Source of the DNA: Escherichia coli
Lineage (GTDB): Bacteria > Pseudomonadota > Gammaproteobacteria > Enterobacterales > Enterobacteriaceae
Direction: 5' to 3' (one strand)
Assembly: GCF_003334385.1 (NCBI RefSeq)
Contig: NZ_QOWN01000023.1
DNA: 64,000 nucleotides
How positions within the stretch are numbered: the stretch's first letter is position 1; each line of letters starts with the position of its first letter. The notes beneath the pieces were generated by a model, which was not told where the DNA came from, made no database searches, and worked only from the letters and a program-made list of their open reading frames with translations. Made by a program: the position numbers and the translations under genes. Positions 22,404 to 22,512 of this stretch are shown one piece after another.

Positions 22404-22512
22404 ACTAATATGCCGGATGCGGCGTAAACGCCTTATCCGGCCTACAAATTCTGCAAATTCAACAAATTGCGAATCCCTTGTAGGCCTGATAAGCGTAGCG
22501 CATCAGGCATTT
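22404..22512. repeat. Two inverted REP palindromes flanking an AT-rich spacer (BIME-1/RIP-like)
   Basis: GCCGGATGCGGCGTAAACGCCTTATCCGGCCTAC ... GTAGGCCTGATAAGCGTAGCGCATCAGGC; spacer contains ATTCAACAAATTG resembling an IHF site with one mismatch. Confidence 0.8.

Follow-up and report, generated by a model that had tools for sequence, protein, structure and literature searches.

The REP pair between pepB and sseB of Escherichia coli is very probably a canonical single-copy BIME-1 element

The REP pair in the intergenic region between pepB and sseB, together with the linker that it encloses, very probably constitutes a canonical single-copy BIME-1 (RIP/RIB), a non-autonomous REP doublet in which a Y and a Z1 unit are joined by an L linker. 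Judged from sequence, membership of the BIME-1 L-linker family is beyond reasonable doubt. The abbreviation BIME stands for bacterial interspersed mosaic element, RIP for repetitive IHF-binding palindromic and RIB for reiterative ihf BIME, and BIME-1/RIP elements have been in the literature since the early 1990s. The copy described here is an ordinary one, of a kind already known as a class. As a typical chromosomal BIME-1 copy in a K-12-like genome, its importance beyond correct annotation is small. Only three points are mildly new: how near the element lies to a stop codon, that a deletion allele exists, and that Rfam ES036 overlaps it.

The window, meaning the whole 64,000-nt stretch of DNA that was analysed, was 99.96% identical to E. 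coli K-12 MG1655 over its 64 kb, in reverse orientation and with one extra 91-nt repeat unit. According to the RefSeq annotation, the stop codon of pepB occupies positions 22401-22403 and the ATG of sseB lies at 22545, leaving a gap of 141 nt. A preliminary description of this DNA had placed two inverted REPs in the gap, flanking a spacer with a one-mismatch match to the IHF consensus, and when the coordinates were checked the sequence was found to be as claimed. The inverted repeats were also recovered by an independent repeat search. The REP head GTAGGNNNGATAAG gave 11 matches in the window against 0.51 expected, and the REPs at pepB-sseB are far beyond chance. The whole Y-linker-Z1 element covers window positions 22412-22509, corresponding to MG1655 2,654,969-2,655,066, and its parts are listed in Table 1. 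Only one BIME unit is present in the gap, with no tandem array. In the copy of the MG1655 record that was examined, no repeat_region features were found at pepB-sseB or at yaaX-yaaA.

Table 1. Parts of the pepB-sseB element and adjoining features, in window coordinates
Feature	Position	Strand	Sequence and remarks
Y-type REP (palindromic unit)	22412-22445	+	GCCGGATGCGGCGTAAACGCCTTATCCGGCCTAC; iREP orientation, 3' end CCTAC
Y REP hairpin stem	22412-22441	+	
L linker of BIME-1, 34 nt	22446-22479	+	AAATTCTGCAAATTCAACAAATTGCGAATCCCTT; MG1655 2,654,999-2,655,032
Predicted IHF core	22457-22469	+	ATTCAACAAATTG; A-run 22446-22448 upstream, 8-nt gap
Z1-type REP (short Z)	22480-22509	+	GTAGGCCTGATAAGCGTAGCGCATCAGGCA; REP orientation, inverted relative to Y; begins GTAGG
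Spacer from Z1 to the sseB ATG, 35 nt	22510-22544	+	
Direct repeat, copy 1, 10 nt	22396-22405	+	CGGCGTAAAC; spans the last codons of pepB and the TAA stop
Direct repeat, copy 2, 10 nt	22420-22429	+	CGGCGTAAAC; within the Y REP, in its loop

By definition, a BIME-1 pairs a y REP with an inversely oriented z1 REP, has a long conserved linker, L, between them, and is present in single copy (Ton-Hoang et al. 2012, PMC3333891). The L linker frequently carries an IHF site (PMC3333891), and the definitions of BIME-1 and RIP, including the IHF site in L, are also given in PMC2817692 and PMC2892488. The BIME-2 class combines y and z2 REPs with short linkers in tandem (PMC3333891). At pepB-sseB, the REP-IHF-REP layout of a BIME-1 (RIP) that had been proposed for the locus was recovered as Y, L linker and inverse Z1 in single copy. 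The left REP carries the Y signature, GCCGGATG...ATCCGGC with a GTAG/CTAC head, and agreed column by column with the Y of the family described below. Its right partner is a short Z and not a long Z2, and the two stand in inverse orientation on either side of a long L linker that is conserved; the unit occurs once. Within L, ATTCAACAAATTG supplies the IHF consensus core, in the register of the family and with the T at position 2 that the family has. The element is located at a gene 3' end, its first hairpin, the Y stem, beginning 8 nt past the stop codon of pepB. The label Z1 was deduced from the pairing of the short Z with L and from the long Z in a BIME-2 array of the window, and not from the published z1 consensus. 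Since the long Z is Z2, as judged from that array and from the use of the term Z2 for the long Z flanking yafM in PMC2817692, the short Z at pepB-sseB is Z1.

To place the element within its family, species-representative genomes were scanned with the pattern CCTAC-N(28-40)-GTAGGCCTGATAAG, which accepts any REP tail, any linker and a Z head. At least 120 loci were obtained, and their sources included E. albertii, Pseudocitrobacter and a genome labelled E. coli SCPM-O-B-8794. When the MG1655 and window copies of the pepB-sseB locus were removed from the 136 matches listed, 134 remained and were classified. A left Y followed by a linker with four or fewer mismatches to ATTCAATATATTGC was found in 107 of the 134 matches listed, and in 103 of these 107 the right partner was a short Z. 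The family linkers measured 33-36 nt overall, with 35 nt (n=83) ahead of 34 nt (n=15) and 36 nt (n=7) among the matches listed. A linker matrix was then built from 117 distinct non-orthologous family linkers among those matches, giving the consensus AAAATCGTGCAAATTCAATATATTGCAGAAACCTT. Compared in this way with the BIME-1 copies collected in the analysis, the window linker scored 31.8 bits on the family matrix, in agreement with the BIME-1 assignment of the preliminary description; the runner-up site on either strand of the 64 kb reached 4.5 bits. The score of 31.8 bits corresponds to the 32nd percentile of leave-one-out family scores, for which the median was 40.2.

The resemblance between family copies extends beyond the palindromes. 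Approximately 60-80% of the copies among the matches listed carry AGTGCGCTTTGTTCAT before Y and AATTTTGCGTTTGTCA after Z1, each flank column being 60-90% conserved in the same matches. These flanks presumably correspond to motifs A and B as named by Gilson et al. in 1991, and they are not strictly required. Because the outer flanks are common to ~60-80% of BIME-1 copies, the mobile unit is probably ~135 nt, larger than the ~100-nt Y-L-Z1 core. Conserved outer flanks were not seen at pepB-sseB, where the upstream position is taken by the pepB stop region and the downstream one shows 9/15 mismatches to AATTTTGCGTTTGTCA. The first bases of the spacer, ATTTGCG, represent a degenerate remnant of the family flank after Z1. 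The pepB-sseB copy would seem either to have lost its outer flanks or never to have had them.

The candidate IHF core ATTCAACAAATTG differs from the IHF consensus WATCAANNNNTTR by exactly one mismatch, an A-to-T change at position 2. With one mismatch or fewer allowed, WATCAANNNNTTR matched the window 53 times, where 49.4 matches were expected; at least 53 were counted in 36 of 100 shuffles. The chance of finding one such match somewhere in a given 34-nt linker is ~1.2%, which is suggestive but weak. An IHF score above background had been put forward as the check on the preliminary description. As the generic consensus match is at background, this check does not discriminate and cannot settle the IHF reading, which is upheld instead through homology to the L motif. 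Among the matches listed, 112 of 119 family copies have T at core position 2, so the single mismatch noted initially is the family norm. The family core consensus from these matches, ATTCAATATATTG, bears the same A-to-T departure, and, read in register, 88 of the 119 copies depart from the IHF consensus at no more than one position. In the matrix from the matches listed, the information content of the linker was highest at ATTCAATATATTGCA and at the A-run that precedes it by 8 nt, with the remainder drifting. The window core has CAAA at its centre against TATA in the family, a difference at two central positions where the IHF motif is free of consensus; a C at the first central position occurred in 2 of 117 family linkers among the matches listed. 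These comparisons relied on the IHF consensus from the literature and on the sequence of lambda attP rather than on a separate IHF matrix. It follows that a lone one-mismatch match to the IHF consensus is uninformative and that such sites are identified by L-motif homology.

IHF binding has been reported for the BIME-1 class (PMC3333891, PMC2817692, PMC2892488). In the literature that was searched, no report of IHF binding at pepB was found, and binding at the pepB-sseB copy would be expected by analogy with the family. IHF has a footprint of ~35 bp and bends DNA by ~160 degrees. With such a footprint, the linker would be essentially one IHF site that folds the two REPs together. At the DNA level, IHF is predicted to bind L through the core ATTCAACAAATTG and the upstream A-run, its ~35-bp footprint filling the whole linker and its sharp bend setting the REPs side by side.

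The genomic position of the family was determined from the neighbouring genes. Among the matches listed, the 79 classifiable copies comprised 35 between convergent, 42 between co-directional and 2 between divergent genes, so that 77/79 (97%) lay downstream of a gene 3' end. Such a distribution is in keeping with how these elements were first described, at the 3' ends of transcription units. The distance from the stop codon to Y was 8 nt at pepB compared with a family median of ~56 nt, the latter measured to the approximate element border among the matches listed. A scan of the pepB-sseB intergenic region found no promoter-like and no terminator-like sites in 22404-22544. The genes iscX, pepB and sseB were co-derepressed in an E. 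coli iscR mutant, according to the work of Giel et al. as cited in PMC4055776. Because of this co-derepression and the empty scan for promoter-like and terminator-like sites, the element is most likely transcribed inside a read-through mRNA, presumably as part of an isc-iscX-pepB-sseB transcript.

The folding of the element as RNA was then predicted. The Y REP alone gave -21.3 kcal/mol (z -4.4) and the Z1 REP alone -12.9 kcal/mol. As one long hairpin, the whole element reached -54.7 kcal/mol (z -5.4), with the stop codon of pepB taken into the base; as single-stranded DNA it gave -30.4 kcal/mol. In the alignment of 103 family copies, 4 of the 12 pairs of the Y stem showed compensatory (double) changes and 96% of cells were paired, and these changes support a separate hairpin for each REP. 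The long Y:Z1 hairpin was considered as the selected structure and set aside: it is thermodynamically favoured and showed zero compensatory changes, in a test limited by the search pattern, in which the Z1 head was fixed. A proposed inner helix of the linker was only ~63% paired across the family among the matches listed.

The functions generally ascribed to REPs and BIMEs include the protection of mRNA upstream of them and Rho-dependent attenuation (PMC3333891, PMC2892488), and, according to Liang et al. 2015 as reported in PMC12306157, a REP that lies within 15 nt of a stop codon causes ribosomes to stall and lowers translation. By extrapolation from such other REPs, on which all the RNA-level roles considered for the pepB-sseB copy would depend, the REP hairpins may shield the upstream pepB message from 3'-to-5' exonucleases and may dampen read-through into sseB. 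Because the Y stem lies 8 nt past the stop, inside the published 15-nt rule, it could in addition stall terminating ribosomes and lower PepB output. A more elaborate scheme was also formulated, in which the Y hairpin, with the stop codon in the base of its extended stem, would act both as a translation-coupled brake on PepB and as a divider of isc read-through into sseB, with the deletion allele described below relieving the brake and IHF on the linker modulating it. We regard this scheme as doubtful. Were it true, the 24-nt deletion found in nature would amount to a regulatory polymorphism, one by which the PepB brake is relieved; likewise, if the stop-proximal hairpin tunes PepB/SseB output, the deletion allele would offer a ready natural experiment. 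As to origin, the element would have been spread by a REP-associated Y1 transposase, TnpA-REP (RAYT).

Alternatively, the element may be a selfish or neutral relic, a BIME-1 by descent that has no host function at pepB-sseB, whose core was inherited from a master copy and whose arms are alike through gene conversion or transposase recognition. This is possible, although we consider it somewhat unlikely, and the conservation data bear on it from both sides. At least 80% of a 321-nt query spanning the locus was present in 5,425 of 5,426 complete E. coli genomes, and an orthologous copy was found at the same site in E. albertii. Together these indicate that the insertion predates the species split, and retention in all but one genome is not what a relic would suggest. 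When K-12 was compared with E. albertii, 62 of 64 positions in the REP arms were identical; of the four-fold degenerate sites of pepB and sseB, 276 of 337 were (p = 3e-4). The two REP arms evolve more slowly than four-fold degenerate sites, which also counts against a relic. In the same comparison, the linker was identical at 29 of 34 positions, and its 5/34 differences did not depart significantly from the neutral rate. Such divergence is as expected of a relic and gives no sign of locus-specific selection on the IHF site. Across the family, however, the linker is best conserved at the IHF core and the A-run, whereas drift is seen in its flanks, and the concentration of 97% of the classifiable copies among the matches listed at gene 3' ends is a further argument against neutrality.

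Among E. coli strains the element is a hot-spot of polymorphism. Relative to O145, 8 substitutions were counted in 133 nt, whereas 400 nt of the coding sequence on its flanks contained 4 (p = 0.002). A deletion allele lacking the 24 nt between the copies of CGGCGTAAAC was found in ~456 of 5,452 records, or ~8% of the 5,426 complete genomes. The deletion removes the 5' arm of the Y REP, destroying the Y hairpin, and leaves PepB unchanged. In S1-JOR-02-A, the single strain with this allele that was examined, 12 of the 60 positions in the remaining Y half and linker (window 22420-22479) were changed relative to K-12, whereas the flanking coding sequence had 6 changes in 392 (p = 1e-7), and the core was degraded to ATCCAATAGATTG. 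This divergence is far larger than simple relaxed constraint would give, and suggests that another copy was the source by conversion or that the allele is old. The deletion allele can still fold, the 3' half of Y pairing with the 5' half of Z1 (-36.5 kcal/mol). Both the excess polymorphism over the flanks and the frequency of the deletion are in line with a neutral relic, as is the description of BIMEs as a source of polymorphism and as TnpA-REP substrates (PMC3333891). The occurrence in ~8% of genomes of an allele without the Y 5' arm, together with its degraded core, argues against an indispensable role. Overall, the data fit arms that are homogenised or constrained and a linker that is free at this locus, and these patterns of divergence keep the neutral reading alive.

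It was considered very unlikely that the element is an intrinsic terminator closing the pepB unit and that sseB has a promoter of its own. Strong GC-rich hairpins do follow directly on the stop codon of pepB, and RIBs were originally placed at the 3' ends of transcription units, going by the title of Boccard & Prentki 1993 as cited in PMC2817692. However, neither hairpin is followed by a T-run, no terminator-like site was detected in 22404-22544, no promoter-like site was seen upstream of sseB, and Z1 is separated from the ATG by only 35 nt. The co-derepression of sseB with pepB and iscX in iscR mutants, as related in PMC4055776, likewise runs counter to a terminator.

Similarity to Rfam families was also noted. 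The full model of RF02751 (ES036, also CssrF) matches 22446-22487 with E = 2e-4 and RF02564 (naRNA4) matches the Y REP, CssrF has been seen on a northern blot in Shigella (PMC3071730), and many REP elements are transcribed (PMC12152304). On this basis the linker could be an ES036 member and the REP a naRNA4 relative, forming a gene for a discrete regulatory or nucleoid-associated RNA. We hold such a gene to be highly improbable, because both matches are below their gathering scores (29.7 vs 37.6 bits for ES036 and 40.3 vs 59.5 bits for naRNA4), the 43-nt ES036 model is itself the linker of the repeat plus GTAGGCCT, so that a match means BIME-1 and not a gene, no promoter-like site lies in 22404-22544, the inner helix of the linker is paired in only ~63% of the family, and the region is most likely already within a read-through mRNA. 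Canonical BIME-1 linkers at other loci do exceed the ES036 gathering score, in three genera (L026, L057, L108 and L002). The ES036 family probably marks a repeated DNA element and not a gene for an sRNA. ES036 being in effect the BIME-1 linker, BIME-1 should be masked when sRNAs are called.

Some genomes (H6, H9) carry, in their PGAP annotation, a 'hypothetical protein' pseudogene, frameshifted and incomplete, that lies wholly over the BIME-1. An example is L125 313-416 in E. coli T28R, equivalent to window ~22412-22515. This pseudogene is most likely an annotation artefact, and masking of BIME-1 is also advisable when ORFs are called. A 262-nt contig labelled Desulfosporosinus sp. OT (L072) consisted entirely of an Escherichia-type BIME-1, with Y, a consensus L and Z1, and is probably contamination of a Firmicute assembly.

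Several other REP loci were observed. The REP pair reported between hda and yfgD is present at 59418-59511, between convergent genes. Its linker is 22 nt long and unrelated to L, so this pair is not a BIME-1. The right REP of the pair, GTAGGCCGGATAAGACGTGGCAAGCGTCGCATCCGGCA, combines the diagnostic G of the Y type with a long Z2-like stem, and the pair falls nearer to the BIME-2/atypical group. The single REP reported between yphB and yphA was likewise located, at 3580-3613. It is of the Y type without a GTAGG head and is not a BIME-1. The largest REP cluster in the window, at ~14804-15170 in the trmJ-iscR intergenic region, is absent from the preliminary description. This cluster is a tandem BIME-2 array of four 91-nt units, each a long Z2 plus Y; the MG1655 array has three units, which is the sole length difference from the window over 64 kb. 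Matches of GCCGGATGCG at 2057 and 29816 were evaluated as REPs but fall inside yphC and yfhM coding sequence on the coordinate map and were taken as chance.

Variation in unit structure was also seen outside the window. In E. albertii NBRC 107761 (L009 6955-7499), four tandem units with a period of 147 nt were found, each consisting of the upstream flank, Y, L and Z1. Although BIME-1 is described as single-copy, these units form a tandem BIME-1-like array. Locus L046 contains two such BIME-1-like units, 177 nt apart. The yaaX-yaaA element of MG1655 (L002 566-670) has a Y-L-Z arrangement with a long Z2, a good L motif and an ES036 score of 38.7 bits, and by the published definition would be an atypical (chimeric) BIME.

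Among known systems, the pepB-sseB element is most directly compared with the BIME-1/RIP/RIB class. It has Y and inverse Z1 with the GTAG heads toward the linker, a 34-nt L linker with a ATTCAAnnnnTTG core, and a single copy at a gene 3' end. It departs from the class in having no upstream flank and a degenerate downstream flank, in the CAAA centre of its core where the class has TATA, and in lying unusually near a stop codon, at 8 nt compared with the median of ~56 nt. With BIME-2 and atypical BIMEs it has in common the kind of REP, the alternating orientation and the intergenic location. BIME-2 differs in its long Z2, short unrelated linkers, tandem units and want of an L motif, and gyrase affinity is higher for BIME-2 than for BIME-1 (PMC1475751).

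REPINs resemble the element in that two inverted REPs are able to form one long hairpin, and in the proposed mobilisation by a Y1 transposase, RAYT/TnpA-REP (PMC3333891, PMC8049555). The REPs at pepB-sseB differ from those of REPINs in being of different types, Y and Z1, and compensatory changes favour the individual REP hairpins over an inter-REP hairpin, within the limit set on that test by the fixed Z1 head. The consensus of the Rfam RF02751 model ES036 (CssrF), AAAuUUGUGCAAAUUCAAUAAAUUGCAGGAaAUACGUAGGCCU, equals the L linker plus the Z1 head, and the window copy, at 29.7 bits, differs from its accepted members in staying under the gathering score of 37.6. Finally, the lambda attP sites H' and H2 were compared with L. 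The L core has T rather than A at position 2, and its site, which is predicted here, lies between palindromes and is not a recombination site. The TATA centre of the H2 core, TATCAATATATTA, is shared with the L consensus. The H' site consists of AAAAAA, 8 nt and the 13-nt core TATCAATTTGTTG, and the same layout of A-run, 8 nt and core is seen in the L consensus (AAAA-8 nt-ATTCAATATATTG) and in the window (AAA-8 nt-ATTCAACAAATTG).
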